A stretch of 64,000 bases of DNA from Candidatus Babelota bacterium (GCA_049325595.1 JBMOLF010000010.1:1-64000), one strand, 5' to 3'. Counted from the first letter of the stretch, positions 5,275-56,131 are shown. A program made the numbers and translations. Notes: generated by a model not told the origin, from the sequence alone.

Positions 5275-6492
5275 ATGGCGCTATATTTTTATCAAGCCTA
5301 TTCTAAAGAAGGAAAAAAAGTAACAGGATATATTGATGCGCCAACATTGCCCGGAGCAAAAGAGCTTTTGAGCAAGCAAGGCGTGTATCCTATTTCTATT
5401 GTACCAGCAACTCAAGAAAGTGCACTACCATGGTGGAAAAGATTATTTACCCGCAAGGTAAAAACAAAAGATAAAATTCTTTTTACCAAGCAGTTATCGG
5501 TATTGCTCAAATCGGGCGTGCCCTTACTGCAATCACTTGAATTACTCACCGAGCAATTTGAGGGAGGTTTAAAAACACTTCTTGTTGCGATTAAAGATGA
5601 TATTAAAGAAGGTACATCACTTGCTGATGCACTCAAAAAATATCCCAAAGTATTTGAAAATATTTATGTACAGCTTGTGCGTGCCGGTGAAGCGAGTGGT
5701 AAGCTTGAGGTAATTTTAGATCGTTTGACTGATTATCTTGAGCGCCGCGATGAGCTTGCAAAGCGGGTGCGCTCTGCATTGTCTTACCCAATAATGCAAT
5801 TGGTTTTTGCTGTGCTTGTGGTGGTTTTTTTGCTCACTAGCGTCGTGCCAACGCTTGTTAATAATTTGCAATCGATGGGTAAGCAGCTTCCTGGTACTAC
5901 TGCTTTTATCATGGGCATATCAAATTTTATTACCGGCCATTATTTATTTTTAATTATGCTAGTTGCTGCATTGATAGCTGGTTTTTCTTATGTGCGTTCA
6001 ACTGAATGGGGGCGTCGGCTACTTGATCGCATTAAATTAAAAACACCTATTGTTGGTTATTTTGCAAAGACCAATGCTATTGTGCAATTTAGTTATACCT
6101 TGGGTATGCTTACCGAGGCCGGCGTCAACTTAGCTGAGTCGCTTGATATTGTCGTAAATATTATTGATAACCAAATTTTAAAAGATGCGTTACAAGAAGC
6201 GCGCGATAAAATTATAAAACAAGGTAAAATTGCTCAATACTTAAAACAAACGAACTTATTTCCTCCTATGGCAACGTATCTTATTAACACGGGTGAGCAA
6301 ACTGGTAAATTGGATCAGATGTTGTTAACGGTAGGGCGTAATTATGAGGAGGAATTGGGTGAAGTAGCAGATAGTTTATCTTCAAAATTAGAGCCAATTT
6401 TATTGGTGGTAATGGCGGTTATTGTAGGATTAATTGTAATGGCCGTTATACAACCAATTATGGAATCGGCTGATATTGGATCATTTGGTTGA
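5275..6492 (+). CDS. gspF: Type II secretion system platform protein F (GspF/PilC)
   Basis: FTKQLSVLLKSGVPL, AGEASGKL, ALSYP, GEQTGKLD and LEPIL motifs; three TM segments. Confidence 0.93.
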   Translation: MALYFYQAYSKEGKKVTGYIDAPTLPGAKELLSKQGVYPISIVPATQESALPWWKRLFTRKVKTKDKILFTKQLSVLLKSGVPLLQSLELLTEQFEGGLKTLLVAIKDDIKEGTSLADALKKYPKVFENIYVQLVRAGEASGKLEVILDRLTDYLERRDELAKRVRSALSYPIMQLVFAVLVVVFLLTSVVPTLVNNLQSMGKQLPGTTAFIMGISNFITGHYLFLIMLVAALIAGFSYVRSTEWGRRLLDRIKLKTPIVGYFAKTNAIVQFSYTLGMLTEAGVNLAESLDIVVNIIDNQILKDALQEARDKIIKQGKIAQYLKQTNLFPPMATYLINTGEQTGKLDQMLLTVGRNYEEELGEVADSLSSKLEPILLVVMAVIVGLIVMAVIQPIMESADIGSFG

Positions 6493-6514
6493 TGTAAATA
6501 CGTAAAGGTGATGT

Positions 6515-6931
6515 ATGCAAGAACAAAAATATGTAAAAGGTGGATTTAGTTTAATCGAAATCCTTATTGTACTTGGTATTATTGGTTTGATCATGGCAGG
6601 GATTGTGCCTTATGTTACCAGCAAAATGAAACAAGCTAAGGTGGAACAAGCACGCACCGAGGTAAAAAAACTAGCAAGCGAAATAGAACTATATCGTTTG
6701 CATGTGGGTGAATATCCAACTCGCTTGATTGATTTAGTAAAACAGCCGCAAGGCACTGAAGGTAAATGGAATGGCCCATACGTGCCAGGTAATAAAGAAC
6801 CTATGGATCCATGGGGACAAAAGTATATCTATCGCGTAACACCGGGCGGTGAACGTGAGTATGAATTATCATCATACGGTCCAAAAGGTAAAGGCGCGCC
6901 TAAATCTGAGTGGATTGTATATCGTGACTAG
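6515..6931 (+). CDS. gspG: T2SS major pseudopilin G
   Basis: Class III signal G|FSLIE; LELY-like IELYRL..G.YP, WNGPY, DPWG and SYGP.G motifs. Confidence 0.92.
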   Translation: MQEQKYVKGGFSLIEILIVLGIIGLIMAGIVPYVTSKMKQAKVEQARTEVKKLASEIELYRLHVGEYPTRLIDLVKQPQGTEGKWNGPYVPGNKEPMDPWGQKYIYRVTPGGEREYELSSYGPKGKGAPKSEWIVYRD

Positions 6932-6942
6932 AAAGTAGTAGT

Positions 6943-7500
6943 ATGAAAAGCGCCCAGAATGGTTTTACATTAATTGAGATTTTGGTAGTACTCGGGCTTA
7001 TTGCTCTTGCAAGTACGCTGTTTGTAACCAATATTGGGCGCTTTTCATCATCTTATGCGCGCAAAACGTTTATTAGTCAATTGCAGGCACTTTCAACCTA
7101 TGCATGGCAACAGGCTATGATTACGCGACAGTTGCACAAAATTGAGTTTGATTTTACCAAAAAGAAAGTAACACTTACTAAAATGGCTGCATCAAGCACT
7201 AAAGAACAACCGCGATTTGAAAAAATAAAAAATTCTTATGTGCGATCAACTATTTCAATACCATCCAATATTGTTATTAAAAATTTTTTGATTGATGGAT
7301 TTGATCAAATGGGAGCGTTTGTTGGCCGCAAAACAGAAGCGGTTCATTTTTTTATTGTTCCTGGTGGACTTACTCAAGAAGTGATTATTAATTTTATTGA
7401 TACTAAAGATATACTTCCTAGTAAAAAAGCTCGCACTGTTTCATTAGTGCTCAACCCTTTCAATGCCCAGTTTGCAGAGTATGATACATTTCAAAAGTAA
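6943..7500 (+). CDS. gspH: T2SS minor pseudopilin H-like
   Basis: G|FTLIE prepilin motif; position after gspG. Confidence 0.7.
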   Translation: MKSAQNGFTLIEILVVLGLIALASTLFVTNIGRFSSSYARKTFISQLQALSTYAWQQAMITRQLHKIEFDFTKKKVTLTKMAASSTKEQPRFEKIKNSYVRSTISIPSNIVIKNFLIDGFDQMGAFVGRKTEAVHFFIVPGGLTQEVIINFIDTKDILPSKKARTVSLVLNPFNAQFAEYDTFQK

Positions 7501-7888
7501 ACATGGTTTTACCTTATTAGAAGTGCTTGTATCGGTTATGATTGTTGCCATGATAATGGGACCAGTTTTTTTATGGCAGACAGGAGTTTTTTCACGTACT
7601 TATCAAGCATCAGGCGAACTTAATCGACTTTTTATTGCACGTAATTTTTTTATAAATTCCCACCTTCAATTCCTAGATCAGCAAGCAGCCCAAAAAGAAG
7701 AAGCCTCCAAAAATCCTGCGATGATGATGAAGTATGAATTAAAAAAAGTTCCCGCAAATTCGGCAGTAGCAAAATTTAAAGATATTGCTTTGGAGACCAT
7801 TAACATTTCATGGAAAGAAGGTAAAAACAAGTATACACGCCGTCTTGTTTCATTTGAACATCGCATTGCTGAAAGTAAACAGTCATGA
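7481..7888 (+). CDS. gspI: T2SS minor pseudopilin I-like (start probably ATG 7481)
   Basis: G|FTLLE motif; gene order G-H-I-J-K. Confidence 0.7.
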   Translation: MIHFKSKHGFTLLEVLVSVMIVAMIMGPVFLWQTGVFSRTYQASGELNRLFIARNFFINSHLQFLDQQAAQKEEASKNPAMMMKYELKKVPANSAVAKFKDIALETINISWKEGKNKYTRRLVSFEHRIAESKQS

Positions 7889-8799
7889 AGCCGGGTTTTA
7901 CCTTATTAGAATTTTTACTAGCAACTGCTCTTGCAGGATTATTATCTGTTTTTTTACTCACTTCGTTGTGGTCTATAAATCGGTATGTTTATTTAATAGA
8001 TGAAACGACTCAAATGGATGAAAAAGCTGCTCTTATTAATAGCCAGATAGAGCGAAGTATAAGTGGCGCATTTATTCCCGTACAAGCGGTAGAAGAAAAA
8101 AAAGAACCTGAGCAGCAAAAGCCAGTTTCAGCAGAACAAGCGCAAGCAGCCGCGTCAGTAGAAAAAAAAGAAGAGACAAAACGACCAACACTAAAAAAAA
8201 TTTTTTTTAGCGAGAATAAAGAAAAAAATCTTTCAGTACTTACCTGCATTACCAATAATCCCTTAGTTGTATACTGGGGTGAGCAATGGGGTAAGGCTGT
8301 GCCGCGTATTGCACGAGTTGTATATCATTTAAAGTCAGAAAAGGTACATGATAAACGCACTATAAATTCATTTACACTTACAAGACAAGAATCGGAAGAG
8401 CTTGATTTTGCTGCTTTTGATAAAAGTGCGGCGATAAAATCGTATGATCTTGCACGAGGAATTAAATCGTTTACGGTTGAATTTGGCTTGGTTGAATCTG
8501 AAAAAGAAAAACAAGAAACCAAAAAGTTTGATCAATGGAACTCCGATGCGACTTCATCAGAAAAAGAAGAGGAAAAAAAATCTCCTTTGCCAACGTTTTT
8601 GAAAATTACCTATGAGTTATGGGATAATCAATACAAGCGCTCTCAATCATATACCTATCTTATTTATATTGTGGGTGGACAACCTGCGCCAGCACCAAGC
8701 AAATCACCAGAAAAAAAGACTGAAGAGAAAAAAAGTAACTTGATTGAAATGATGCATAAACAGGTTTTCCCTCAGCAAGCACCACCGCAAAAAAATTAG
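7885..8799 (+). CDS. gspJ: T2SS minor pseudopilin J-like
   Basis: G|FTLLE motif; ATGA overlap with the previous gene. Confidence 0.7.
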   Translation: MKPGFTLLEFLLATALAGLLSVFLLTSLWSINRYVYLIDETTQMDEKAALINSQIERSISGAFIPVQAVEEKKEPEQQKPVSAEQAQAAASVEKKEETKRPTLKKIFFSENKEKNLSVLTCITNNPLVVYWGEQWGKAVPRIARVVYHLKSEKVHDKRTINSFTLTRQESEELDFAAFDKSAAIKSYDLARGIKSFTVEFGLVESEKEKQETKKFDQWNSDATSSEKEEEKKSPLPTFLKITYELWDNQYKRSQSYTYLIYIVGGQPAPAPSKSPEKKTEEKKSNLIEMMHKQVFPQQAPPQKN

Positions 8800-8808
8800 G
8801 TTAAAAAA

Positions 8809-9912
8809 ATGAATAAGCATGCGCATTCTGGTTTTATTCTCGTTTTCTCGTTGATATTAACTTCGTTGGCTGTTTTTTTAATAACTTATATTGCAAGCCG
8901 CAGCATGCTTTTTTTGCCATATGCACAATTTATGATTCAGCAGCAGAAAGCTACAGTACTTGCCTATGGAGGTATTCAACTAGGAATAAGCCAACTTGCG
9001 CATGTGCAAAAAGAAGAAAAGCAAGCTTCTGCTTCACAAGCAAATCAGCAAGCAGGTGAAAAACAAAAACAAACTGAATCTGCTGATCAAAAAGAATTTT
9101 TACCGGCGCTATTGCCAGTATTGAATCGATGGCAAAAGTTTAAGCTCACCGAAAAAGTTGAAGGGATTGATGCAGAGATTAAACTGTGTATCACCAGTGA
9201 AGATGGTAAGTTCAATATTAATGAGTTGTACGATTTTACTAAGCATGAGTTTATTACCACTGCAAATCCTGCTATAGATGGAAAAAAAATTATGCAAGAA
9301 TTATGTACTCGTATTGAACAAAAAATGGGCGGGAAAAATCTATTTGCAGGATTTGAAAAATTCTTAAAAGAGCGGCAGTATAGGGTAAATGATGTTACTG
9401 AGTTATTAACCATAAAAGAATTTGAACTTTTCAAGAATGCGGTGTTTGAAGAGCCATCGCACGAAGAGGTGAAAGATAAAAAAAAGAGCCCGCAATTGGT
9501 CTTGACCGATTTGTTTACCGTGTGGTCAACCAAAAAAACTATTGATCCATGGTTATTTACTAACTCGATCAGCAGGATATTTTCCTTGCGTGCAACTGAC
9601 CAAATAGATGAGCAGATGCATAAGCGTACGGTTCAAGAGGTAGTAAAAAATGCAAAAAACCAATATAATTGGGCAATTGACTGGGCTCAGTTCATGCGAC
9701 CATTCTATGAAAAAGAATTTAGCGCATTACCTGCGCACATAGGAGCTATGTTAAGCACGAGCGTTAAGCCATTAAGTTTTTCAATTGCAGCTCACGCAAC
9801 AGTTGGCCAACATACGGTAAGATTAGTGGCAATTGTTGATCGCGTCGCGACAACTGAGCAAGGTGCTCAGCCGCGCCATGAGGTGACAATCAAAAAAATA
9901 TACACGCTTTGA
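8809..9912 (+). CDS. gspK: T2SS minor pseudopilin K-like
   Basis: G|FILVF lacking Glu5 (typical of GspK); EDGKFNIN motif. Confidence 0.78.
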   Translation: MNKHAHSGFILVFSLILTSLAVFLITYIASRSMLFLPYAQFMIQQQKATVLAYGGIQLGISQLAHVQKEEKQASASQANQQAGEKQKQTESADQKEFLPALLPVLNRWQKFKLTEKVEGIDAEIKLCITSEDGKFNINELYDFTKHEFITTANPAIDGKKIMQELCTRIEQKMGGKNLFAGFEKFLKERQYRVNDVTELLTIKEFELFKNAVFEEPSHEEVKDKKKSPQLVLTDLFTVWSTKKTIDPWLFTNSISRIFSLRATDQIDEQMHKRTVQEVVKNAKNQYNWAIDWAQFMRPFYEKEFSALPAHIGAMLSTSVKPLSFSIAAHATVGQHTVRLVAIVDRVATTEQGAQPRHEVTIKKIYTL

Positions 9913-28024: not shown

Positions 28025-28026
28025 CA

Positions 28027-34081: not shown

Positions 34082-34558
34082 ATGAAATATTATTTTTTGT
34101 TCATTGTTTGGAGTTATGGTTTTTGTGCTTACAGTATGCACCATCAGGTAATAGTGAATGTTGTTAATAACACCCCTATGCCGGTTAAAATACAACAAAT
34201 TGGCAGAGAACAAATTATGCATATTCCTGGTATGGAAACATCTCATTATTATATATGGCCATTTCAAAGCAATAATTCATATGAAATGAAATTAAAAATA
34301 TCAGGTGATTTTTTTAGATCGGCATATGTTAAGTATGTAAAAAAAGCTAAAAAAAATGATTGTGTAATTAAAAAAAAGTTAATACGTAATTCAAAGAAAA
34401 TAAAATATAAGGTATGGGGTGCCATATACCAATCTCAGAAAGATATACAAGCTCAGAATGATATCAGAGCGAGCGTTATTAATTTAATCATTGATAATAA
34501 TAAAAAACCAATCATATCACCTGAAGCTATTATTTTAGAACCAGAATTAGCTTTGTAG
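34082..34558 (+). CDS. Hypothetical secreted Lys-rich protein (start ATG 34082)
   Basis: Leader MKYYFLFIVWSYGFCAYS|M. The upstream ORF extension overlaps nrdB and its terminator, so it is unlikely. Confidence 0.65.
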   Translation: MKYYFLFIVWSYGFCAYSMHHQVIVNVVNNTPMPVKIQQIGREQIMHIPGMETSHYYIWPFQSNNSYEMKLKISGDFFRSAYVKYVKKAKKNDCVIKKKLIRNSKKIKYKVWGAIYQSQKDIQAQNDIRASVINLIIDNNKKPIISPEAIILEPELAL

Positions 34559-36352
34559 TTTTTTTATCTGCTCATCGGTAAGAGAATTGAGTAATTCTTT
34601 GAGAGTGCTTTTAATTTCGATATAAAGATTATCTAAATTTTGCTCATTTAATGTATTTTTAGATAATAAAAATTCTTTTGGAGCTTCGTTAAATTTGCGA
34701 TGGTAATTTTCTACTTCTTCTTTTAATAAATCATCTAATTCCTTCATGAATGGCATAAATATTTCACATTCGATGAGCTCGGTAATTTTTATGATCTTGG
34801 ACAGACGTTGATGCATTTTATAAATTTTTTTTAATTTTGAAAAAAATTTTAATGTGTAATCGACCTCAGTATTATAATCATCTAATTTTTCTGGAATAAT
34901 ATAGGTTTTGGCATATTTTTCAGATGACTTCTTTTTCTTAATATCCTGTAAACAGTTTTGTATTTGCGTAATTGAGTTGTTAATGCTTCCTAATATTTTT
35001 TGAAGGGGGGGAATATATTGTGGAATGTGTAAGCGAGTTGCTAAATCTTTCCCCTGGGTGATGCGTTCTTGTAATAAGCTTATTTCTTGAATTCGCATAG
35101 TCAAATATTGTTTTAGGAAATTATTTTGATAGGCAATAAGTTCAGGTCTTATAACCTGATTGAGTAAAGAAATTAATTCAATTTTTAAGTCGTTGGAAAT
35201 AGTTTGGGCGTCTTCTGGTTCGGTAATTGCGCTTACCCATCGTTGTTTTACGCATCTATATTTGCTATTAATTGTCTGATAAAGCAGTAAATGTATGTTA
35301 TTAAGGCTTGAACGAATCTCTTTTTTAGCAAGAAATGTTTTACAAGCATACTTTAAAGCTTTGTATATAGTTCCTATTTCTCTTGTAGGGACATATTCGG
35401 CAAAAATTGAAGAGAGATCTTCATTGTTTTGCTGAGAGTAAAAATTTTTTATAATTTTTTGCATAATCTGTTTTGTTTTAACATTAATTTTTTTGGATAA
35501 AGGATTTATTAAGCTACTGGTAATAAAAAAAAGAGCTCTAAAACTCATCTCTTTTAAAGAAGGTATTTTTTGTTGCTCAATTAAATTATTTTCATTAGGA
35601 AGTTCAACATCAGTGAATAATCCTTCAAAAAATTTTGGGTACTCTTTTAATTCACATGCTAGTGAAAGCGATGATTTGCCCAGTTTATTTTTGATTTTTA
35701 AATTAGCGCCTAAGAATAATAAATCTTTTACGAGATCAGGTTTAACTGAGTGTTGGCTAAGTGCTGTATGCAACGGTGTATCACCCTGTAAATTTGGTTT
35801 ATTTATTTGTCCCCCAAATTTACATAGAGATTCGAATATTTGAAAACGTAAATCTTCACGTAAAATTTGTTTTGGCATATCAGAAAAATCATTTTTTTCT
35901 GTATATAATTTTTTTTTGCGTACCATTAAATGAAAAGGTGTTTCTCCTGTATTGTCTTGATGGTCAGGAATAGCGCCATGTTCTAAGAGAAGCTTGACTC
36001 TAGCAAGATTTAATTCATCGACAGCATTATGCAACGGTGTTTTGCCCTGACGATTCATCCTATTTATAAATTCACTAAAAGGGACAGGGGCATCAGGTAA
36101 TTGTTTTATTAGTGTTATAAGCGTCTGAGCGACACTTACTTTTTTTGTAATATGTAAGCAATTATTTGCATAGCTATCGGTATAGAGTAAGTCTGCTCCA
36201 TTATCTAGCATTTTTTTTACCCGTTCCCAATCACCTTTTTCACAGGCATCAAAAAACAGTTCATTGCCACCCTGATCAAAAATATTTTTTTCCATACCAA
36301 AAAATGGAACGCTTAGGTGCAAAAGTAATATTGTTAAAATGTTTTTTTTCAT
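34547..36352 (-). CDS. Secreted ankyrin-repeat protein with BC-box-like motif and helical C-terminus
   Basis: Signal peptide; GKTPLH, GETPFH and GDTPLH repeats; IPSLKEMSFRAL; ATGA overlap with the ugd stop. Confidence 0.85.
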   Translation of the reverse strand: MKKNILTILLLHLSVPFFGMEKNIFDQGGNELFFDACEKGDWERVKKMLDNGADLLYTDSYANNCLHITKKVSVAQTLITLIKQLPDAPVPFSEFINRMNRQGKTPLHNAVDELNLARVKLLLEHGAIPDHQDNTGETPFHLMVRKKKLYTEKNDFSDMPKQILREDLRFQIFESLCKFGGQINKPNLQGDTPLHTALSQHSVKPDLVKDLLFLGANLKIKNKLGKSSLSLACELKEYPKFFEGLFTDVELPNENNLIEQQKIPSLKEMSFRALFFITSSLINPLSKKINVKTKQIMQKIIKNFYSQQNNEDLSSIFAEYVPTREIGTIYKALKYACKTFLAKKEIRSSLNNIHLLLYQTINSKYRCVKQRWVSAITEPEDAQTISNDLKIELISLLNQVIRPELIAYQNNFLKQYLTMRIQEISLLQERITQGKDLATRLHIPQYIPPLQKILGSINNSITQIQNCLQDIKKKKSSEKYAKTYIIPEKLDDYNTEVDYTLKFFSKLKKIYKMHQRLSKIIKITELIECEIFMPFMKELDDLLKEEVENYHRKFNEAPKEFLLSKNTLNEQNLDNLYIEIKSTLKELLNSLTDEQIKKLQS

Positions 36353-37734
36353 TCTTTTTTGCCTATTTTACTAATTACAAAATGTTGCAAAAATCTATTC
36401 TTGCAATCTAAAACATTGCACGCATCGATGATCAAAGGACGCTTCATTATTTGGTGAAAGGGAGCATTTTCAAGTTGTTTAAATTCGCACCAATCGGTCA
36501 TAATTATTGCAGCATCACAATCAGATAACGCTGTTTCTAATGAATTACAATAACAAATATTCGGAAATAACTTTTTCATAGCATCATTTGCAATCGGATC
36601 ATACGCTTTTATATGAGCGCCATGTTTTTGAAGTAACTCTATAGTGGTAATAGCACAGGAATTTCGTATATCATTTGTACCGGCTTTGAATGAAAGGCCT
36701 AAAACAGCAACAGTTTTACCATCCAAAGTTACTAAATGTTCTAATAATTTTTTTACCGGAACCGTGCGTTGTTCTTGATTGGTTTGTAAACAAGCAGCAA
36801 GGGTGCGCAAAATAACACCGTGGTTTTTTGCAATCTGAAGTAACGCACTACAATCTTTAGGAAAACAAGATCCACCAAATCCCGGTCCATGCTTTAAAAA
36901 ATAAGAACCAATACGCTTATCAAGGCCCATGGCATGAGAAACTTGGCAGATATCTGCTCCTGTTTTTTCACATAAATTGGCAATTTCATTAATAAAGCTA
37001 ATTTTTACCGCTAAAAAAGAATTAGAAGCATATTTAATCGTTTCGGCAGTTGCCGGATCTACTAACACGCAGGGAATTTTTTCTTGAAGAAGTGGTTCAT
37101 ATAAGTTTTTAATTGTATGCGCAGCTTCAAATGAATGAGATCCAATTACAATACGATCCGGATTTAAAAAGTCATAAACTGCAGATCCTTCCCGTAAAAA
37201 TTCTGGATTCATTACCATGTCAAATAAATCGGGCGAAACATTATGTGAAAGTAATAGTTGTTCAGCATAATCTGTTGTGCCAATAGGTACGGTGCTTTTT
37301 ATGCAGATTATTGTTTTTTTGTACAACGACTTACCAATGGTAGCAAGTGCTGTATTCAAATAACCCATATAAGCAGTACCATCATCATTCATAGGGGTGT
37401 CAACGGCAATAAAAACTATGTCTGCTTGTTTGATGGCTTCTTCTGCTTGAGTGGTAAAGAATAATTTTTGATGCAAAAGCTCTTTACGTAAAAGATCGGT
37501 AAGTTGAGGCTCATAAATCGAAACAATTCCATTTTTTAGTTCATTTATTTTTTTTTCATCAATATCAACACATATTACCGAATAACCAAGATGTGCAAAG
37601 CAGGTACCCGTAACTAATCCCACATAACCCGTGCCAATAACGGCAATAGTTGGTATCTTAGTCTGAGAAAAAATACCATTATGAAATAGAATTGTGAAAA
37701 AAAATAATGAAATAATTTTCTTAATTTTGTTCAT
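36349..37734 (-). CDS. ugd: UDP-glucose/GDP-mannose 6-dehydrogenase with signal peptide
   Basis: GTGYVG, KSTVP, PEFLREG and GFGGSCFPKD motifs; leader MNKIKKIISLFFFTILFHNGIFS. Confidence 0.92.
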   Translation of the reverse strand: MNKIKKIISLFFFTILFHNGIFSQTKIPTIAVIGTGYVGLVTGTCFAHLGYSVICVDIDEKKINELKNGIVSIYEPQLTDLLRKELLHQKLFFTTQAEEAIKQADIVFIAVDTPMNDDGTAYMGYLNTALATIGKSLYKKTIICIKSTVPIGTTDYAEQLLLSHNVSPDLFDMVMNPEFLREGSAVYDFLNPDRIVIGSHSFEAAHTIKNLYEPLLQEKIPCVLVDPATAETIKYASNSFLAVKISFINEIANLCEKTGADICQVSHAMGLDKRIGSYFLKHGPGFGGSCFPKDCSALLQIAKNHGVILRTLAACLQTNQEQRTVPVKKLLEHLVTLDGKTVAVLGLSFKAGTNDIRNSCAITTIELLQKHGAHIKAYDPIANDAMKKLFPNICYCNSLETALSDCDAAIIMTDWCEFKQLENAPFHQIMKRPLIIDACNVLDCKNRFLQHFVISKIGKKE

Positions 37735-37884: not shown

Positions 37885-38724
37885 GTGAAAATGCGTTATA
37901 TGTGGTTATTAATAATCGGCATCCTACTTCATATAAGTAGTGTGGCTAAAGAATGTCTCACCTCATTTGTAATAGTAACTGCATCATATAATAACAAAGA
38001 TTGGTACCAAAAAAATTTACTTTCGCTTTTTGTACAAAAATATGAAAATTGGCGATTAATTTATGTTGATGATGCCTCTGATGACGGTACGGGAGCATTG
38101 GTAGAGCAATTTGTTCATGAACATGGCATGCAATCACGGGTGATGATTATAAGAAACAGTGCAAGAAGAGGGCACTTTGCTAATCAATATGATGCCATAC
38201 ACACCTGTGATCCTTCAGAAGTGGTGATAATTCTTGATGGTGATGATTGGCTAGCACATGATCAGGTATTAAATCGATTGCATGAAGTTTATCAAGATGA
38301 TGATGTGTGGCTTACGTATGGCCAATTTTGGTATTGGAAGAAAAATAAAAAAGGCTTTTGTAAACCTATTTCTCAGGAAAGATTAGAACAAGGAACAATA
38401 CGAACGCTTAAACCTTTTATGACATCTCATCTGCGAACATTTTATGCAGGATTGTATCAACAAATTCAAAAAGAACATCTTATGTATAATGATGCATTTT
38501 TTCCTATGTGTGTTGATGTTGCTACTATGATGCCTATGATAGAAATGGCTCGAACTCATGTGCGTTACTTAGATGAGATTTTGTATATTTACAATGATGC
38601 AAATCATCTTTCTTTTTTTCATGATCGCCGAAAACAACAAGAAGAACTAGAAGCATATATTAGAAAACAACCAACCTATCAGGCACTTAACCGAGTTCCA
38701 TGGGCACTAGAAAAGGATAACTAA
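37885..38724 (+). CDS. GT2 (GT-A) glycosyltransferase with signal peptide
   Basis: YVDDASDDGT, LDGDDWL and HLRTF motifs; leader MKMRYMWLLIIGILLHISSVA. Confidence 0.88.
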   Translation: MKMRYMWLLIIGILLHISSVAKECLTSFVIVTASYNNKDWYQKNLLSLFVQKYENWRLIYVDDASDDGTGALVEQFVHEHGMQSRVMIIRNSARRGHFANQYDAIHTCDPSEVVIILDGDDWLAHDQVLNRLHEVYQDDDVWLTYGQFWYWKKNKKGFCKPISQERLEQGTIRTLKPFMTSHLRTFYAGLYQQIQKEHLMYNDAFFPMCVDVATMMPMIEMARTHVRYLDEILYIYNDANHLSFFHDRRKQQEELEAYIRKQPTYQALNRVPWALEKDN

Positions 38725-40184
38725 TGCAGGGGGTATTTAAACTTTTGTTACTTTTTTTTATGGCTTTTTTTATTAATACCGATGCTAAAGAAAAAAAATT
38801 AGTAATTATAATAACCTCTTTTAACAATGCCCAATGGTATCGTGCTAATTTAGACTCAGTTTTTGACCAAGAGTATCAAAATTATCGCGTTATTTACGTA
38901 GATGACTGTTCTGATGATGGAACAGCAGAATTGGTTGAAAAATATATTGCACAACGGGACCAACAACATCGTTGTATGCTTATTAAAAATAAAAAACGAG
39001 TGCGAGCATTAGCTAATTTATATAACGCAGTGCATCTTTGTGATGACAATGAAATAATTTTTAATTTTGATGGCGATGATTGGTTTGCGCATAATAAAGT
39101 TTTTGCCATGATTAATGAAATCTATGACGATCCCAATGTGTGGATTACCTATGGTCAATTTAAAAACTGGCCTACGGAACAAATGGGTTATTGTAAGCCA
39201 TTGCCTGATGAAGTGGTACAAAAACAATTGTATCGACAAAAATGGTGGGCGCCAGGACAACTACGCACGTTTTACGCATGGTTATTTAAAAAAGTGCAAT
39301 TAAAAGATTTGTTATTTGAAGGCCCTTATTTTAGAGGACAATTTTTTCCTGCAAATTCTGATCTTGCTATTTATTATCCCATGATGGAAATGGCAGGTCA
39401 TCGCCATAAATTTATTTCAGACGTAATATACATTCGCAATGTTCAAACGCCAATTAATGATTTTAAAGCCAATAAAGATGTTCAAGTAATGGGTAGTGCT
39501 TTAATACGTGCTAAAAAGAGATATCCATTATTGCCAAGTCACTATCAACCGGTAAAAAAAGATAATGAGAAAAAGGCTGATGTTGTGATTATTTCTTCTT
39601 GTGAGGAGAAAACAGATAGGCTATTAAAATCTATAGAAAACTTAATGATTGGTATTAATAGGGTATACATTTTAAGCAATAAGGCAGCGTTTTCATATGA
39701 AGATTGCAAGCATATGGTATCTTGCCCAATTATTGTTCAAGAATATCGTACTGTCCAAGAATTAAATGAGATAGTAAGTGATGCTTCAGATTACCTTTTG
39801 TTATTAAATGATTCGTTATTGGTAATTAGATATATTAATTTAGTTGAGTGTATTGAATGGCTTGAAAAGACCTATGCTTATGGTTTTTATTTAATGCAGG
39901 ATAAAAAATCTACTCTATCGCCATTTACCGGAAACTTTCAGCCAGTTCCCATTCTTAATAAAGTGCATAGCACTATCTATGCTTGGGCTTTTCATTACGC
40001 AGATTGCGGTGATTGGCGCAATCCTTTGCAGTGGGGTTGCTTGTACAAAAAGAGCGATCTTATTCAGGCAATAAATAGTTTGCTGTTTGTTACTGGTAAT
40101 GCCGACAAGCCAAGTGAATTAATTGATCTAGAAAATATTGGGTTATGTTATAAAAAGCCTAAATTATGTCTTATTGCAAGTTAA
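38724..40184 (+). CDS. GT2 glycosyltransferase with signal peptide and second degenerate GT-A-like domain
   Basis: YVDDCSDDGT, FDGDDWF and QLRTF motifs; TAATG coupling; paralog of the previous gene. Confidence 0.88.
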   Translation: MQGVFKLLLLFFMAFFINTDAKEKKLVIIITSFNNAQWYRANLDSVFDQEYQNYRVIYVDDCSDDGTAELVEKYIAQRDQQHRCMLIKNKKRVRALANLYNAVHLCDDNEIIFNFDGDDWFAHNKVFAMINEIYDDPNVWITYGQFKNWPTEQMGYCKPLPDEVVQKQLYRQKWWAPGQLRTFYAWLFKKVQLKDLLFEGPYFRGQFFPANSDLAIYYPMMEMAGHRHKFISDVIYIRNVQTPINDFKANKDVQVMGSALIRAKKRYPLLPSHYQPVKKDNEKKADVVIISSCEEKTDRLLKSIENLMIGINRVYILSNKAAFSYEDCKHMVSCPIIVQEYRTVQELNEIVSDASDYLLLLNDSLLVIRYINLVECIEWLEKTYAYGFYLMQDKKSTLSPFTGNFQPVPILNKVHSTIYAWAFHYADCGDWRNPLQWGCLYKKSDLIQAINSLLFVTGNADKPSELIDLENIGLCYKKPKLCLIAS

Positions 40185-44333: not shown

Positions 44334-44921
44334 ATGAAAATTAATCACTTCCAACTAGTTATCTATTTTATCTGTTCTTTTTTTGCTACAAATGGGCAGC
44401 AAGATTCAAATCATTTTGTTTTTTGCGATTTAATAAAATCGCAGACATTATGTCCTAAGTCAGATTATGCGCAAGCAGTTAACTATTTGCCAATTTGTTG
44501 TGTTGATATTTTTGTATTTAACCAAAAAACACACCAATATTTTATGGTACTGCGCAAACAAAAACCAGCACAACATGAATGGTGGTATCCAGGTGGTAGA
44601 CTCTTTAAGGGCGAATCTTTTTTTGAATGTGCGATTCGTAAATGTCGTGATGAAGTTGGGTTGCACGTTAAGCCTCTTGCTGAGCTTGGTGTGTATTCAA
44701 CAATTTTTCCTGATTCTGAATGGAACTGCCAAACGCATACCGTTAATATAGCAGTATTAGCATTGTTAGAAGAAAACTCATTCATTCAATTAGACCACGA
44801 TCATGAGCAAGGACAGTGGGTTGATGTCAGTATTGTTCCCAAAAATCCTTATCTTAAAGCTTTGTATGACAAGGCAATTTCTTATTTAAATTCACATAAT
44901 CTTAATCAAGGAATCTTATGA
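44334..44921 (+). CDS. gmm: GDP-mannose mannosyl hydrolase-like NUDIX with signal peptide
   Basis: P..CVD, R...PAQ..W.YPGGR..KGE and TH.V motifs as in Gmm/WcaH; next to gmd and fcl. Confidence 0.75.
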   Translation: MKINHFQLVIYFICSFFATNGQQDSNHFVFCDLIKSQTLCPKSDYAQAVNYLPICCVDIFVFNQKTHQYFMVLRKQKPAQHEWWYPGGRLFKGESFFECAIRKCRDEVGLHVKPLAELGVYSTIFPDSEWNCQTHTVNIAVLALLEENSFIQLDHDHEQGQWVDVSIVPKNPYLKALYDKAISYLNSHNLNQGIL

Positions 44922-46024
44922 ATATAAAAAAAATTTATTTTGCATTATGCATAGTAGGTGTAAATGTATTGGCTTCTGAATATGAAACTGAAAAAGTAGC
45001 TCTTGTTTGGGGTATGGGCCAAGATGGTAAATATTTATCAAAACTATTATTAGATAAAGAATATAAAGTATATGGCATAGGCAAATCAGCTGATCAAAAA
45101 GATTTTAGACAAAATGTATATGATTTTCTTGGTATAGAAGAAGATTCAAGATGTTTTAAGCTATTTCAAGGAGATATTTCAGATTCTAACTGCGTTTTTA
45201 ATAAGTTGTCTAAAATTAGACCGACACAGATTTATAATTTAGCGGCACAAAGTAGTATCCCCGAATCTTTTAAAAATCCTGATCAAACTTATCAAACAAA
45301 TTTTGAAGGAACACTGAATATTTTAGAAACAATGCAAAGTTTGGATTTATGGCATATAAAATTTGTTCAGGCAGCTTCCATAGAAATTTTTACGGGTACT
45401 AAAGCTGATTGTTATGATGAAAATTCTTTGCTTTCTGCGTGTTCGCCCTATGGCACCTCAAAATTGCTAGCTTATAAAATGCTACAGCGTTACCGTAAGA
45501 GATATGGAACAAATGCGGGGAATGCGATTTTATGTAATCACGAATCACCTGAACGACCTGAAGGTTTTATTACTCAAAAAGTTGCAAAAGCAGTAGCAGA
45601 AATTTTTTTAGGAAAAAGAGATAATTTTTCTGTTGGCAATATTCATGCGCAACGTGATTGGGGACATGCTCGCGATTATGTAAAAGCCATGAAAAAAATG
45701 GCTGATCAAGCAAAAATGGACGATTATATAATAGCAACTGGCAAAGTTCATTCAGTTAAAGATTTAATAGAAAGCGCTTTTTCTCATACCGGACGTACTA
45801 TTGTATGGTCAGGAGAAGGCATAGATGAAAAAGGTTGTGATAGTAAAACAGGTCACGTATTAGTAACAATAAACCCAGAATTTTATAGACCAAATGAGGC
45901 ACAAGTAACTACCGGCAATACAAAAAAAATATACGAAAAGTTATATTGGCAACCAGAAACCACCTTTGATGAATTAGTAAAAGAAATGGTGGAAACACAA
46001 ATTAAAAAACTACAAACAAAATAA
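44918..46024 (+). CDS. Divergent GDP-mannose 4,6-dehydratase paralog with signal peptide
   Basis: [39 protein letters not shown] and YRPNE motifs. Confidence 0.85.
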   Translation: MNIKKIYFALCIVGVNVLASEYETEKVALVWGMGQDGKYLSKLLLDKEYKVYGIGKSADQKDFRQNVYDFLGIEEDSRCFKLFQGDISDSNCVFNKLSKIRPTQIYNLAAQSSIPESFKNPDQTYQTNFEGTLNILETMQSLDLWHIKFVQAASIEIFTGTKADCYDENSLLSACSPYGTSKLLAYKMLQRYRKRYGTNAGNAILCNHESPERPEGFITQKVAKAVAEIFLGKRDNFSVGNIHAQRDWGHARDYVKAMKKMADQAKMDDYIIATGKVHSVKDLIESAFSHTGRTIVWSGEGIDEKGCDSKTGHVLVTINPEFYRPNEAQVTTGNTKKIYEKLYWQPETTFDELVKEMVETQIKKLQTK

Positions 46025-46036
46025 GGAGTAAACACG

Positions 46037-47053
46037 ATGTTAAAAAAAATAGTATTATCACTTTTATTAGTAACTATGGTAAATACGAATGCCAATGTGG
46101 CACCAATGCCTAAAGATGCTAAGATTTTTGTAGCAGGCCATCGTGGATTGGTAGGTTCGCATATTGTTGATGAGTTACATGCTCAAGGTTACACGAACAT
46201 TTTAACTAGAACCAAAGATGAACTTGATTTATGCAATGCACAAGCAGTAGATGAATTTTTTGAAAAAGAAAAACCGGAGTATGTGTTTTTAGCAGCAGCA
46301 AAAGTTGGTGGTATTTTGGCTAACAATACCTATCCAGCCGATTTTATTGCACAAAATCTTGCCATTGAATTAAATATAATTCAATCTTCTCATAAATACG
46401 GCGTAAAAAAACTTCTCTTCTTAGGTTCTTCATGCATTTATCCACGCATGTGTCCACAACCAATTAAAGAAGAATATTTGTTGACCAGTGAATTAGAGCC
46501 AACTAATGAGCCATATGCTATTGCTAAGATTGCTGGTATTAAATTATGCCAATCTTATAATCGCCAACATGGCACGAAATTTATTGCTTGCATGCCAACA
46601 AACTTATATGGTCCTAAAGACAACTTTAATTTACAAAATTCTCATGTATTACCGGCACTACTTTCCAAAATTCATACCGCAAAAGTGAATGGTGATAAAC
46701 AAGTTACCGTGTGGGGCACCGGTACACCGCGCCGCGAGTTTTTATACGTTGAAGACCTTGCCCAAGCATGTGTTTTCTTAATGAATAATTACGAAGGTAA
46801 TGAAGTGGTAAATGTAGGTACCGGCACCGATGTTACTATTGCAGAATTAGTTTCAATGATCGCCAAAGTTGTTGGCTTTGAAGGTGACTTAGTGTACGAC
46901 ACTACTAAGCCTGATGGTACGCCACGCAAATTATTAAATGTTGATAAATTAACTTCACTTGGCTGGAAAGCTAAAATATCGTTAGAAGATGGCATTAAAA
47001 AGACCTATGAATGGTATTTGCAAAATGTGGAAAAAGAAATGATCAAAAAATAA
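46037..47053 (+). CDS. fcl: GDP-L-fucose synthase with signal peptide
   Basis: [37 protein letters not shown] and KPDGTPRK motifs. Confidence 0.96.
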
Positions 47054-47063
47054 GAGGGAAGTA

Positions 47064-48167
47064 ATGAAGCACTTAATTATATGTTTATTATTGGGAGCCA
47101 GCGCTATAAGCGCTGCTCCCAAGGTTGCGCTTATTACGGGTGTGACGGGCCAAGATGGATCGTATCTTGCTGAGTTTTTATTAAAAAAGGGGTATATAGT
47201 ACACGGTATTAAACGTCGTGGGTCATTGATTAATAATACACAACGAGTTGATCATATTTATGAAGATCCACATTGTGCTAAACAATTTTTTCTACACTAT
47301 GGTGAAATGACTGATGCAGCTAATTTAGTGCGCATTATTCAAGAAGTGCAACCGGATGAAATTTACAATTTAGCTGCTCAAAGCCACGTGCAAGTTTCAT
47401 TTGAGGAGCCTATTTATACAGCACATGCTGATGGTGTTGGTGCGCTTAATATTTTAGAAGCTATTCGTATTTTGGGTATGACTAAAAAAGTGCGTTTTTA
47501 TCAAGCATCAACCAGCGAAATGTTTGGAAAAGTACAAGAAATACCACAAAAAGAAACCACACCGTTTTATCCTCGTTCTCCCTATGGTGTTTCTAAATTG
47601 TATGCGCATTGGATTACCAAAAATTTCCGTGAAGCCTATGGTATTTTTGCTGTCAGTGGTATTTTATTTAATCACGAATCACCACGACGCGGCGAAACAT
47701 TTGTAACCAGAAAAATTGCTCGGGCTGTTGCACGTATTGCAGCTGGATACCATGAAATTCTGTACCTTGGTAACCTAGATGCTTGTCGTGACTGGGGCCA
47801 TGCTCGCGATTACGTAGAGGCAATGTGGCTTATGTTGCAACAAGAAACACCAGAAGATTTTGTAATAGCGACAGGAGAAACTCATTCAGTTCGTGAATTT
47901 GTAGAACTCTCATTTAAAGAAGTTGGCATTGAAATTGAATGGACAGGTACTGGTCTTGATGAAAAAGGTATTGATAAAGCAACGGGTAAAGTATTAGTAA
48001 AAGTTGACCCGCGTTACTTTAGACCAACCGAAGTTGATTATTTGCTTGGTGATGCAACAAAAGCAAATAATATTCTAGGATGGAAGCCGCGCACTACCTT
48101 CTGTGAACTCGTTACCGAAATGGTACAAGCAGAAGTCCGTGCTTTAGATATCGATTTAAATTTTTAA
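47064..48167 (+). CDS. gmd: GDP-mannose 4,6-dehydratase with signal peptide
   Basis: [40 protein letters not shown] and RPTEVD motifs. Confidence 0.96.
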
Positions 48168-50582: not shown

Positions 50583-51356
50583 TCACATGTTACATGTCTT
50601 ATTCTGTTTGTTGAAAAAAAATTGACGCAAAGGAGAATGAACAAGTCTGAGTTTTACTAATGAGCTGAGCATGCGCAAACCACCTTTAAAAAGCTTTAAT
50701 TTACTATCAGCTTGATCATGCCAAACAGTAGGAATCTCTTTAATCTTTGCCTTTTGTTTTTTGCATAAATAAAGCAGTTCTACATCAAATGCCCATTGCG
50801 TAACCGTAAATTTATCGATGATAGCCTGAATAACGGGTCGTTTAAAAATTTTAGCTCCACATTGAAAATCTGCATACCGTATGCCAAATAACATCCATGC
50901 CAGATTTTCATAAACCAGCTTGCTTCCCATTCGCTTTATAAAAGGTCGTGCTGGGCTTACGTGCGCACCCTTCATATATCTACTTGCAATGATACCATCG
51001 CACGATGAAATCTGCTCAATGAGCTGAAAAAAATATTCAGGTCGGGTAGCCATATCAGCATCGACAAATCCAATAAGATCATTTGTCCCCTGCAAAGCAT
51101 GTGAAAATCCTTGCGCTATAGCAAACCCTTTGCCTGCTTGTTCATAATTAAGCACGACAATTTGTTGGTGCTTTTGAGCAAATTGATGTGCAACCTCGAT
51201 GGTTTTATCAGAACAACCATTTAACACAATTATAAATTCATAATCATGTATTACTTGTTGTTCTTTTTTTTCGTGAAAAAATTGACAATAATTATCAACT
51301 GTTTTACCAAGTCGACGTTCTTCATTATGGGCTGGGATCACAATACTAATTTTCAT
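50583..51356 (-). CDS. Dolichyl/polyprenyl-phosphate glycosyltransferase-like GT2
   Basis: IPAHNEE, GKG.A, FVDADMAT, ASRY, DFQCGAK and FDVELL motifs; no signal peptide. Confidence 0.88.
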   Translation of the reverse strand: MKISIVIPAHNEERRLGKTVDNYCQFFHEKKEQQVIHDYEFIIVLNGCSDKTIEVAHQFAQKHQQIVVLNYEQAGKGFAIAQGFSHALQGTNDLIGFVDADMATRPEYFFQLIEQISSCDGIIASRYMKGAHVSPARPFIKRMGSKLVYENLAWMLFGIRYADFQCGAKIFKRPVIQAIIDKFTVTQWAFDVELLYLCKKQKAKIKEIPTVWHDQADSKLKLFKGGLRMLSSLVKLRLVHSPLRQFFFNKQNKTCNM

Positions 51357-55032: not shown

Positions 55033-55445
55033 GGTGTTGTCCTGTAAAGTTCTAGCTTTTCAAGAACATCACCAACGGTTAGTTTTTTTAGTGAGAATGC
55101 ATCTTTTTTAGTGCCATATTTACGCATCTCTTTAAAATCAGAAAGCACTTTTGCAACAACTGAATCGCTTGAAAAGCTCTCTTGTAATTCTTTATCAACA
55201 ATTTTATCTTTCATGTTGCTTAGCTTTTGCCATAAAATTTTTTTATCTTCATCTGATAAGTGGACAAAGCAGATGGTAGGATAACTATTTTCTTCTTTAA
55301 TACCTAATGAAAATTGGTAATCAATTTTTTTGCCGTTAAAAGGGTGAGCATACCGAATGTTTGGTCGCATTTCTTGGCAAACTTTGTCATAGCTATTAAT
55401 CATAAAAATTAGCAATAGCCCATTTAAGAAAATTGTTTTTTTCAT
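55029..55445 (-). CDS. Hypothetical secreted protein
   Basis: Hydrophobic leader; ATGA coupling to the upstream gene. Confidence 0.65.
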   Translation of the reverse strand: MKKTIFLNGLLLIFMINSYDKVCQEMRPNIRYAHPFNGKKIDYQFSLGIKEENSYPTICFVHLSDEDKKILWQKLSNMKDKIVDKELQESFSSDSVVAKVLSDFKEMRKYGTKKDAFSLKKLTVGDVLEKLELYRTTP

Positions 55446-56131
55446 TCATTAGCCCTTTTTTTTGCATATACATAGACGGTTGTTTTTTTATTCCATGTCA
55501 TAGGTAATTGATAGGTTTTGAACAGCGTTAAATAATTATTTTCAGGCATTTTGCGTAAGGTAATAACATATCGTAATGATTGTGTCTTTGATAACGTGTT
55601 TGAAATCTGTTGCATTAATTTATCAGAAAAACAGGTTGAGCATAAAAAGATTACAGTAGCATCGGAAAAGTTTGTTTTAGTAATATCTGCAACACGCAAT
55701 TCGACTCGATCTTTAAAATCAATACCATACATGTTTTTTAAATTAATTACTGCCTGTTGAGCTCGTTCGATACGGGTTTTTGATAATTCAACACCTTTGG
55801 CTTTTGCCGGTGTTGTTAAAGCTACTTGTAAACAGGTTTGCGCAAGCCCACAACCAAGATCATAAAAAACATCTAGGGCTGATAAAGTAAGATCAGATAA
55901 TAGTGTTTGCAGCGCTTCAAAGGTAATTTCTCCATATGTAGGGTCGCCGCCAGCAGTTCTTATAGAAGCTGATTCCTGCGGTGGAATAACATAGCCATTT
56001 ATATTTTTATAAACAGTATTTATGATTTGCTGAGCCTGATTAGGTTTTAGTGGTAAAGATAGAACTGTATAACTAAAGAAAGTTATTATCAATAATGGTA
56101 CTAGATATAACGAGTGCTTCATACTACTCAA
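55442..56131 (-). CDS. DOT1-like (class I SAM) methyltransferase with signal peptide
   Basis: TYGEI, FYDLGCG, GVELS, ADI and ATVIFL.STCF motifs. Confidence 0.75.
   Translation of the reverse strand: MSSMKHSLYLVPLLIITFFSYTVLSLPLKPNQAQQIINTVYKNINGYVIPPQESASIRTAGGDPTYGEITFEALQTLLSDLTLSALDVFYDLGCGLAQTCLQVALTTPAKAKGVELSKTRIERAQQAVINLKNMYGIDFKDRVELRVADITKTNFSDATVIFLCSTCFSDKLMQQISNTLSKTQSLRYVITLRKMPENNYLTLFKTYQLPMTWNKKTTVYVYAKKRANE

Follow-up and report, generated by a model that had tools for sequence, protein, structure and literature searches.

Predicted Sec signal peptides on a GDP-fucose operon of a Dependentiae bacterium point to a probable extracytoplasmic glycan pathway

Introduction

In a stretch of 64,000 nucleotides from Candidatus Babelota bacterium (GCA_049325595.1, JBMOLF010000010.1:1-64000; "the window" in the following) four co-directional open reading frames (ORFs) at 44334-48167 (+) form an operon around the genes for GDP-fucose formation: a Nudix hydrolase gene, a gmd-like gene, fcl (GDP-L-fucose synthase) and gmd (GDP-mannose 4,6-dehydratase). 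All four predicted proteins begin with a leader that has the form of a Sec signal peptide, such leaders are retained on Gmd in a large part of the phylum, and no ManC for the synthesis of GDP-mannose was found in the genome. We regard it as probable that the enzymes are exported and function outside the cytoplasm, in a glycan pathway that would be fed by host GDP-mannose. The bacterium probably builds a sugar coat outside its own cytoplasm from supplies of the host.

Gmd, Fcl and Gmm are normally cytoplasmic enzymes that need GDP-mannose, and Gmd and Fcl also need NADP(H). The organism is a tiny Dependentiae bacterium whose growth is confined to amoeba-like hosts. A first-pass annotation of the window, made from the sequence alone, had noticed the leaders and had proposed an exported pathway that serves either as an outsourced glycan pathway or for the manipulation of host glycosylation. 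Its observation is confirmed by the analysis given here, and its interpretation is partly supported.

Results

Form of the leaders in the window genome

The genome has 1.29 Mb, about 34% G+C and an estimated completeness of 95% (label G000), and the window corresponds to C10:1-64000 of its contigs. Every signal call was made with custom rule-based heuristics for charge, hydrophobicity and the residues at −3 and −1. An initial, looser heuristic flagged 47% of the ORFs and was dropped. With the strict heuristic all four N-termini of the operon are positive. Their leaders comprise 17-21 residues, with one or two Lys or Arg and no acidic residue ahead of the core, an uncharged 10-residue window with a Kyte-Doolittle value of 2.58-2.85, and a small −3/−1 pair. 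The four N-termini contain neither an RR pair, as for a twin-arginine (Tat) signal, nor a canonical lipobox ahead of Cys, as for a lipoprotein signal. By these rules the leaders have Sec type-I form and are predicted signal peptides. A gene for signal peptidase I is present in the genome.

In all four proteins the family profile starts 20-57 residues inside the sequence (Table 1). The coordinates, the profile starts and the strict heuristic thus agree with the earlier description of a basic, hydrophobic and small-residue leader before each catalytic fold. The proposed starts were located as well: the Shine-Dalgarno (SD) sequence AAGGAG lies 8 nt upstream of the fcl ATG and AAGAGG 6 nt upstream of the gmd ATG, AAGGAA precedes the gmd-like ATG, and this ATG overlaps the stop of the Nudix gene as ATGA. 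It is also true that gmd and gmd-like contain no Met before the Rossmann motif, though each leader holds one TTG. From the start of gmd to the Rossmann strand there is no ATG or GTG, and the TTG is without an SD sequence.

The leaders are not special to the operon. Among 1029 ORFs of at least 150 amino acids, called from the most upstream ATG, 412 possess a signal-like N-terminus without a further predicted membrane segment. Because approximately 40% of the proteome has such N-termini, the operon is not uniquely tagged. A Kyte-Doolittle value of at least 2.5 was reached by 412 of 1029 N-terminal windows compared to 28 of 1029 windows at residues 101-125. The genes ndk, tal, orn, nrdAB, ddl, priA and rpsA of the window have no leader, and in ndk, tal, orn and nrdAB a hydrophobic N-terminus is absent altogether. 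The selectivity claimed in the first-pass annotation therefore holds against these last housekeeping genes but does not single out the operon.

Identity of the encoded proteins

Fcl and Gmd exceed the cut-offs of their models. In Fcl, profile positions 2-306 of 308 of NF047922 correspond to protein residues 27-332. The Gmd is the sole bona fide copy of the genome and shares 72-74% identity in its core with ordinary bacterial Gmd. A pairwise alignment with the gmd-like protein reveals in Gmd the Rossmann glycine motif together with the Ser/Thr-Glu and Tyr-x3-Lys residues, which we take to be the catalytic residues of extended short-chain dehydrogenases/reductases.

The gmd-like protein stays below the TIGR01472 cut-off. 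It retains Tyr-x3-Lys and Glu, with Ser in place of Thr, and is 40% identical to the neighboring Gmd; its closest solved relative is human GMD (5in4). No orthologue was found in the 260 other genomes of the phylum at E<=1e-95. The best non-self match among 5.8 billion proteins has 45% identity, compared to 60-75% for ordinary Gmds among themselves, and the operon of the same genus has the order nudix-fcl-gmd without this gene. The protein is a fast-evolving singleton and a putative Gmd-fold enzyme. Compared to Gmd it lacks one residue of the glycine motif and the basic pair that follows strand 2; these changes hint at an altered cofactor or substrate.

The earlier naming of the Nudix gene as gmm is not upheld. 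The Gmm/WcaH model NF011963 is its best specific model all the same, with 43.1 bits where the cut-off is 146. Orthologues occur in three of the 79 other genomes of the family (4/80 if its own genome is included), and all three have hydrophobic N-termini.

Retention of the leader across the phylum

In the phylum, 145 of 261 genomes were found to contain Gmd. N-termini were classified from fetched N-terminal regions for 146 gmd copies in 125 genomes, which leaves 20 genomes with gmd and some 38 of about 184 matches without a class. Of the classified copies 52 have only the leader form, 24 combine a leader with a start codon no more than six codons from the core, 62 are leaderless and 8 were placed in a class "other", seven of which are leaders by eye, just under the threshold. 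The leader property is kept in 84 of the 146 copies.

The leader sequences cannot be aligned with each other, and their form is constant. For 80 Gmd leaders of the phylum the median core length is 12 residues, with at most 17 residues in 74 leaders and 20 or more in three. The −3/−1 small-residue motif occurs in 69 of the 80. The n-region is net positive in 75 and the median charge after the core is 0, and from this charge bias an N-in, C-out orientation is predicted. This is the form of a signal peptide and not of a membrane anchor.

In a maximum-likelihood tree of 47 full-length Gmd cores, with a weakly supported backbone, most leaderless copies fall into one group (support 82/58, which is weak). 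Leaderless copies usually adjoin ManC, and the leader-bearing ones are placed elsewhere in the tree. The labels require 4 changes on the tree compared to a mean of 13.5 after shuffling, and 0 of 500 shuffles were as low. This suggests that leader-bearing and leaderless Gmd are old paralogues and that the leader was maintained through several families.

As a control we used GalU, found in 232 of the 261 genomes. From 30 loci, 12 of which had no match to the motif used, 18 orthologues were classified; all 18 are leaderless, with open frames of about query length. Outside the phylum, 80 Gmd loci in named genomes comprised 70 leaderless copies, 6 unclassifiable ones, 2 without the motif and 1 spurious match. 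The remaining outside locus, the sole case in 80, is a genuine-looking Gmd leader in a metagenome-assembled genome of the Rhabdochlamydiaceae (L226, DATIJE010000004.1), an environmental chlamydia. It suggests that a further intracellular lineage associated with protists arrived at this solution, too.

Of the best 120 Gmd clusters in the collection of 5.8 billion proteins, 28 carry such leaders as called by the gene finders of the sources themselves, and the other 92 have 1-9 residues before the motif, bar one with 39. One cluster representative (P0003) is 81% identical to the Gmd of the window, and a member of its 90%-identity cluster is named by its source as the Gmd of the cultured "Candidatus Dependentiae bacterium Noda2021". 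The GenBank annotation of this protein has a 20-residue leader directly before the Rossmann strand. The isolate Noda2021 is cultured in Vermamoeba vermiformis, with altered mitochondria around its cells (PMC8812299).

Fcl carries the leader in 18 of 22 orthologues. An SD match of at least 4 nucleotides precedes the leader start in 10 of 18 cases and the inner ATG, close to the core, in 0 of 16. We interpret the Fcl leader as an addition to the N-terminus, placed in front of the ancestral start. ManC, where it is present, has a leader in 15 of the 28 copies seen, chiefly in the family of the window genome. A few gmd genes lie in open frames of 680-794 amino acids, fused to large N-terminal regions (G178, locus L030; G200, locus L062; G157).

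Loss of ManC and supply of the substrate

Neither PF00483 nor a ManC protein query revealed a ManC in the window genome, and the only PF00483 proteins are GlmU and the leaderless GalU. The ManC query matched in 142 of the 261 genomes, and neither the window genome, its genus-mate nor any of the 8 genomes of genus g3 was among them; outside the window genome absence means no match to this one query at E<=1e-25. Since ManC is lacking, GDP-mannose has to come from outside.

There are 34 classified genomes, this one included, that contain gmd and lack ManC. They stem from six families (f1, f2, f9, f18, f20, f21) and, as related genomes, are not independent samples; none of them has a leaderless gmd. 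Their gmd is leader-only in 23, has a leader and a nearby start in 8, is mixed in 1 and "other" in 2. In the ManC-bearing classified genomes at least one leaderless gmd occurs in 62 of 91. The pattern recurs that without own GDP-mannose synthesis only the export-tagged Gmd is kept, as would be expected if the tagged form works where host GDP-mannose is available.

A TPT-type sugar-nucleotide transporter was not found in the genome. The search for leaderless copies and transporters proposed in the first-pass annotation yielded no second bona fide gmd, no ManC and no TPT-type transporter. A separate observation concerns GlmU (L005:820-2376 (−), on G000:C12), which is extended upstream by 35 residues that include a hydrophobic segment; a Met occupies the canonical start. 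It may be another dual-start case.

The wider leader-tagged glycan set

Pfam annotation covered the window and two islands on contigs C1 and C9. In the window, the nucleotide-sugar 6-dehydrogenase has a 28-residue leader followed by a linker. The two adjacent enzymes of glycosyltransferase family 2 (GT2) are both positive in the strict heuristic, with leaders that precede the GT-A core, and a third, Dpm1/ArnC-like GT2 has no leader.

Nearly every ORF of the island C1:24-41 kb is tagged. Besides a GT2-GT10 fusion it encodes three further GT2, a GT6 (168 bits), a Cap59-like enzyme and three methyltransferases, two of which belong to FkbM. The genome's two GT10 fucosyltransferase genes, each with a leader, sit in this island. 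In the island C9:72-80 kb we found two leader-tagged proteins, an RfbB-like 4,6-dehydratase and an RmlD-like reductase, together with a GT-D enzyme and enzymes that resemble rhamnosyl-O-methyltransferases. In relatives, leader-bearing GT10 and GT32 genes adjoin gmd and fcl; GT32 (PF04488) is absent from this genome. GT11 (PF01531) and O-FucT (PF10250) had no match in the genome, but they had none in control genomes either. That the pathway is an outsourced one, as proposed earlier, fits this wider set of leader-tagged glycosyltransferases.

Directly beside the C1 island, at C1:16458-24335, collagen-repeat proteins with leaders stand in a row of six, and three of these possess a BclA C-terminal domain. 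In the whole genome 29 ORFs contain eight or more consecutive G-x-x repeats, 18 of them in the signal-like set, with further such ORFs on C1 and C23. These collagen-like proteins are candidate glycan acceptors. The position of GT10, GT6 and GT2 next to them points to a decoration of the bacterium's own exported proteins. LpxC was not found in the genome and neither was Wzy_C/WaaL (PF04932), at 95% completeness. With leaders on both GT10 genes as well, the genome does not match a classical use of GDP-fucose in undecaprenyl-phosphate-linked O-antigen or colanic acid, for which leaderless cytoplasmic glycosyltransferases, Wzy/WaaL and lipid A genes would be expected.

An unnamed leader-bearing family of approximately 290 amino acids without a Pfam match has two copies in the genome (G000:C1:31310-32185 and 34248-35132). 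In relatives it lies beside gmd, fcl, nudix or GT10 (L015:2651-3589, L019:566-1480, L033:624-1490, L173:492-1388). The ESM Atlas gave clusters of "hypothetical protein" and a weak GT2 lead, and the family may be an undescribed glycosyltransferase.

Other features of the window

The genes of the type II secretion/type IV pilus-like cluster are, together with two secretins located outside the window, a possible outer-membrane route for exported proteins. The ankyrin-repeat proteins of the window bear leaders. Five further features, among them three signal-type leaders on normally cytoplasmic or eukaryote-type folds, are listed at the end of Table 1.

Table 1. Features of the window; positions are counted from its first nucleotide and residues from the first codon.
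Feature	Position	Strand	Evidence and remarks
Nudix hydrolase, Gmm-like by operon position only	44334..44921	+	PF00293, 53.6 bits, residues 57-170
Nudix leader	44334-44396	+	residues 1-21, then a linker of ~16 residues; strict signal heuristic positive
AAGGAA upstream of gmd-like	44908-44913	+	
ATGA overlap, Nudix stop and gmd-like start	44918-44921	+	
gmd-like, orphan divergent Gmd-fold paralogue (putative)	44918..46024	+	TIGR01472, 330.5 bits, below cut-off 415; profile from residue 26
gmd-like leader	44918-44974	+	residues 1-19
SD AAGGAG of fcl	46023-46028	+	
GDP-L-fucose synthase, Fcl	46037..47053	+	NF047922, 509.7 bits, cut-off 500
Fcl leader	46037-46093	+	residues 1-19
Fcl internal ATG	46106-46108	+	residue 24
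SD AAGAGG of gmd	47052-47057	+	
GDP-mannose 4,6-dehydratase, Gmd	47064..48167	+	TIGR01472, 600.4 bits, cut-off 415; profile positions 1-340, from residue 20
Gmd leader	47064-47114	+	residues 1-17, immediately before first Rossmann strand
Nucleotide-sugar (UDP-glucose-type) 6-dehydrogenase, Ugd	36349..37734	−	PF03721 from residue 29; TIGR03026, 447.8 bits, above 189.8
Two GT2 glycosyltransferases	37891-38724, 38724-40184	+	PF00535 from residue 28 in both, after leader
GT2, Dpm1/ArnC-like	50583-51356		
Type II secretion/type IV pilus-like genes (GspF, GspG, pseudopilins)	5275..9912	+	PF00482, PF08334, PF07963
DOT1-like methyltransferase	55442-56122	−	PF08123, 61.9 bits; signal-type leader; eukaryote-type, would only make sense in the host cell
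AAA ATPase	22242-23195	+	signal-type leader, fold normally cytoplasmic
Fe/Mn superoxide dismutase	12405-13142	−	signal-type leader, fold normally cytoplasmic
734-aa protein	18630-20834	−	N- and C-terminal domains of D-Ala-D-Ala ligase, each present twice; apparently tandem-fused Ddl
Two tandem NamZ-like exo-beta-N-acetylmuramidase genes	26771-29262	+	

Discussion

A proposed pathway outside the cytoplasm

From the leaders, their form and conservation, the lack of ManC and the tagged context we infer export, cleavage, compartment, source of substrate and acceptor as follows. The four proteins would leave the bacterial cytoplasm via Sec and signal peptidase I would cut off the leader, so that the mature N-termini would resemble those of common cytoplasmic enzymes. 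Their site of action would be an extracytoplasmic space that holds small molecules of the host. This could be the periplasm or the surface of a bacterium lying in the host cytoplasm, or the host cytosol itself, reached via a secretin. There Gmd and Fcl could turn host GDP-mannose into GDP-fucose with host NADP(H), and the leader-tagged GT10 and other glycosyltransferases could consume it. The likeliest acceptors would be the Sec-exported, collagen-like (BclA-type) surface proteins of the bacterium itself. As Sec substrates are unfolded, they cannot be glycosylated before export. If the collagen-like proteins do bear glycans, these must be attached afterwards, which calls for transferases and donors on the outside as well. 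UDP-glucose, NADPH and S-adenosylmethionine (SAM) may be further inputs to this workshop from the host cytoplasm, the SAM-dependent methyltransferases apparently being exported as well.

Several points weigh against such a pathway. Sec exports unfolded chains, and Gmd would have to load its NADP+ outside the cytoplasm. GDP-mannose (~605 Da) and NADPH (~745 Da) would have to cross the outer membrane. All 22 Fcl orthologues seen retain an ATG 4-9 codons ahead of the core, which makes a leaderless Fcl isoform possible; a start codon near the core, kept in 24 of 146 gmd and 13 of 28 ManC copies, likewise permits a cytoplasmic isoform. The in-frame TTG codons stand at residue 10 of gmd and residue 18 of gmd-like. 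Three genomes (G204, G206, G211) combine a leader-bearing ManC with a gmd that is leaderless in the only copy seen, a pairing that a simple one-compartment model does not explain. The share of unclassified gmd matches, the single query behind the ManC counts and the relatedness of the genomes counted also belong here.

Weighing the alternatives

That the leaders are an annotation artefact, i.e. untranslated chance open sequence, can be regarded as largely refuted, and we give it hardly any weight. AT-rich DNA does yield strings rich in Phe, Ile, Leu and Lys, and the ORF caller picks the most upstream ATG. None of the 18 classified GalU orthologues is extended, however, the hydrophobicity is concentrated at N-termini and not at residues 101-125, and SD motifs stand ahead of the leader ATGs. 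The leader is moreover kept through a Gmd clade of several families. The retention across the phylum, the separation in the tree, the annotation of Noda2021 and the unextended GalU together are the reason why we do not consider the leader an artefact of ORF calling. A very improbable reading, though one with slightly more in its favor, is that of uncleaved anchors, which would tether the enzymes to either face of the inner membrane as an assembly line for glycans. Golgi glycosyltransferases as a rule have type II anchors, and the three long cores mentioned above would suit this reading. The short median core, the frequent −3/−1 motif and the presence of signal peptidase I speak against it, and the positive charge on the N-terminal side argues against a catalytic domain facing the cytoplasm.

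Two other explanations are unlikely, and we rate them alike. The enzymes might be dual or mainly cytoplasmic, with internal starts in use, imported GDP-mannose feeding a cytoplasmic pathway and the leader isoform being minor. The conserved inner ATG of Fcl, the nearby starts in some gmd and ManC copies and the mix of leader-bearing and leaderless genes within single operons (G258, G259, G204) are in agreement with this. Yet the Gmd of the window offers only the TTG without an SD, the 52 leader-only gmd copies have no alternative start at all, the inner Fcl ATG is preceded by an SD in none of 16 cases, no TPT-type transporter for an import was found and both GT10 genes are leader-bearing. The enzymes could instead be effectors directed at the host, which cross the outer membrane by type II secretion or vesicles and alter the GDP-mannose/GDP-fucose pool or the glycosylation of the host rather than bacterial glycans. 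The type II-like genes of the window and the two secretins fit this, as do the similar leaders on ankyrin-repeat proteins and on the DOT1-like methyltransferase, proteins that are sensible only in a eukaryotic cell. A Gmm-like Nudix could hydrolyse GDP-mannose, and Sec-dependent secretion of effectors together with outer-membrane vesicles is proposed in a paper on a related bacterium (Deeg 2019, PMC6561590). On the other side, the Nudix is below the Gmm cut-off and rare in the family, GT10 and more than ten other tagged glycan enzymes cluster with collagen- or BclA-like proteins and not with host-mimicking domains, and the sequence shows no readable sorting signal for passage through the outer membrane. 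The first-pass suggestion of a manipulated host glycosylation, or of a draining of GDP-mannose by Gmm, hence receives no specific support.

Beyond an extracytoplasmic pathway in this one bacterium, a broader proposal can be made, which we hold only tentatively and with somewhat less than even confidence in all its parts taken together. Outside their cytoplasmic membrane, many Dependentiae and at least one environmental chlamydia might maintain a glycosylation compartment that resembles the Golgi. Export by Sec would apply to the glycosyltransferases and SAM methyltransferases as well as to ManC, Gmd, Fcl, Ugd and the rhamnose-type enzymes. With GDP-mannose, UDP-glucose, NADPH and SAM taken from the host, these enzymes would glycosylate collagen-like surface proteins after their export. 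Lineages committed to this route would have given up both ManC and the cytoplasmic Gmd paralogue, and would thereby have come to depend on host GDP-mannose.

Comparison with known systems

In E. coli a cytoplasmic gmd-fcl-gmm-manC module serves in colanic acid and O-antigen clusters. The window has the same families of enzymes, and gmd, fcl and a Nudix gene are neighbors there, too. In contrast to this module, the enzymes of the window are all leader-bearing, ManC is absent, the Nudix stays below the Gmm cut-off and no machinery for lipopolysaccharide (LPS), Wzy or WaaL was found in the genome. In the Golgi, GT6 and GT10 enzymes are type II anchored, Gmd and Fcl are cytosolic in eukaryotes, and transporters import the sugar nucleotides. 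GT6 and GT10 with an N-terminal hydrophobic segment, and glycans built on translocated proteins in a non-cytosolic space, are common to both settings. The anchors of the Golgi are uncleaved, whereas here the cores look cleavable and the sugar-nucleotide enzymes are tagged, too.

The nearest functional precedents may be the glycogen enzymes of Chlamydia trachomatis, which are described as secreted and as using host UDP-glucose (PMC4829429; PMC9251005 / bioRxiv 10.1101/2020.10.11.335026). There as well an obligate intracellular bacterium has relocated housekeeping enzymes of sugar metabolism outside the cytoplasm by a gained signal and exploits a sugar nucleotide of the host, according to these reports. 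The differences are type 3 secretion into the vacuole lumen and glycogen as product, compared to predicted N-terminal Sec leaders, an interconversion of GDP-sugars and glycosyl transfer in the window genome. Giant viruses may be another precedent, with the GMD/GMER of chloroviruses and the rhamnose pathway of mimivirus (PMC5408694, PMC4691112, PMC9614988). In these accounts a parasite of protists with its own Gmd, Fcl and glycosyltransferases coats its own surface proteins from host precursors, and collagen-like proteins occur there as in the window genome. The viral enzymes are made in the host cytosol without an export signal, whereas here a cell envelope intervenes and the Sec leader is the apparent solution.

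Within the phylum, Chromulinavorax destructans is reported to have signal peptides on 44% of its coding sequences and on 78% of its ankyrin proteins, to lack detectable LPS genes and to replicate in the host cytoplasm (PMC6561590). Its 44% compare with approximately 40% signal-like ORFs here, and tagged ankyrins, the lack of LPS genes and pilus/PulD-type secretins are shared. The terms fucose, GDP-mannose, glycosyl- and nucleotide sugar did not occur in a term search of the main text of that paper (PMC6561590), which to this extent does not describe the tagging of a whole sugar-nucleotide pathway or a link to the loss of ManC. In the literature on Dependentiae and on periplasmic nucleotide sugars we found no description of an exported or leader-tagged GDP-fucose pathway. 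Contributed here are the association with ManC, the controls by GalU and outside the phylum, the leader statistics, the inner ATG of Fcl, the orphan paralogue, the candidate acceptors among the collagen-like proteins and a connection to a strain that can be cultivated.

Significance

In textbook bacteria sugar nucleotides occur only in the cytoplasm, and glycosylation beyond the inner membrane needs lipid-linked donors. If the proposed pathway is real, a whole export-tagged sugar-nucleotide pathway would break this rule, especially without own synthesis of the substrate. The loss of ManC together with a leader-only Gmd could then be used as a genomic marker for dependence on host GDP-mannose. 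Since Noda2021, a close relative, grows in Vermamoeba vermiformis (PMC8812299), the idea is directly testable. It would represent a new way for an intracellular parasite to plug into the metabolism of its host, and it would explain a glycan coat without LPS as well as the signal peptides on nearly half of the Dependentiae proteome.

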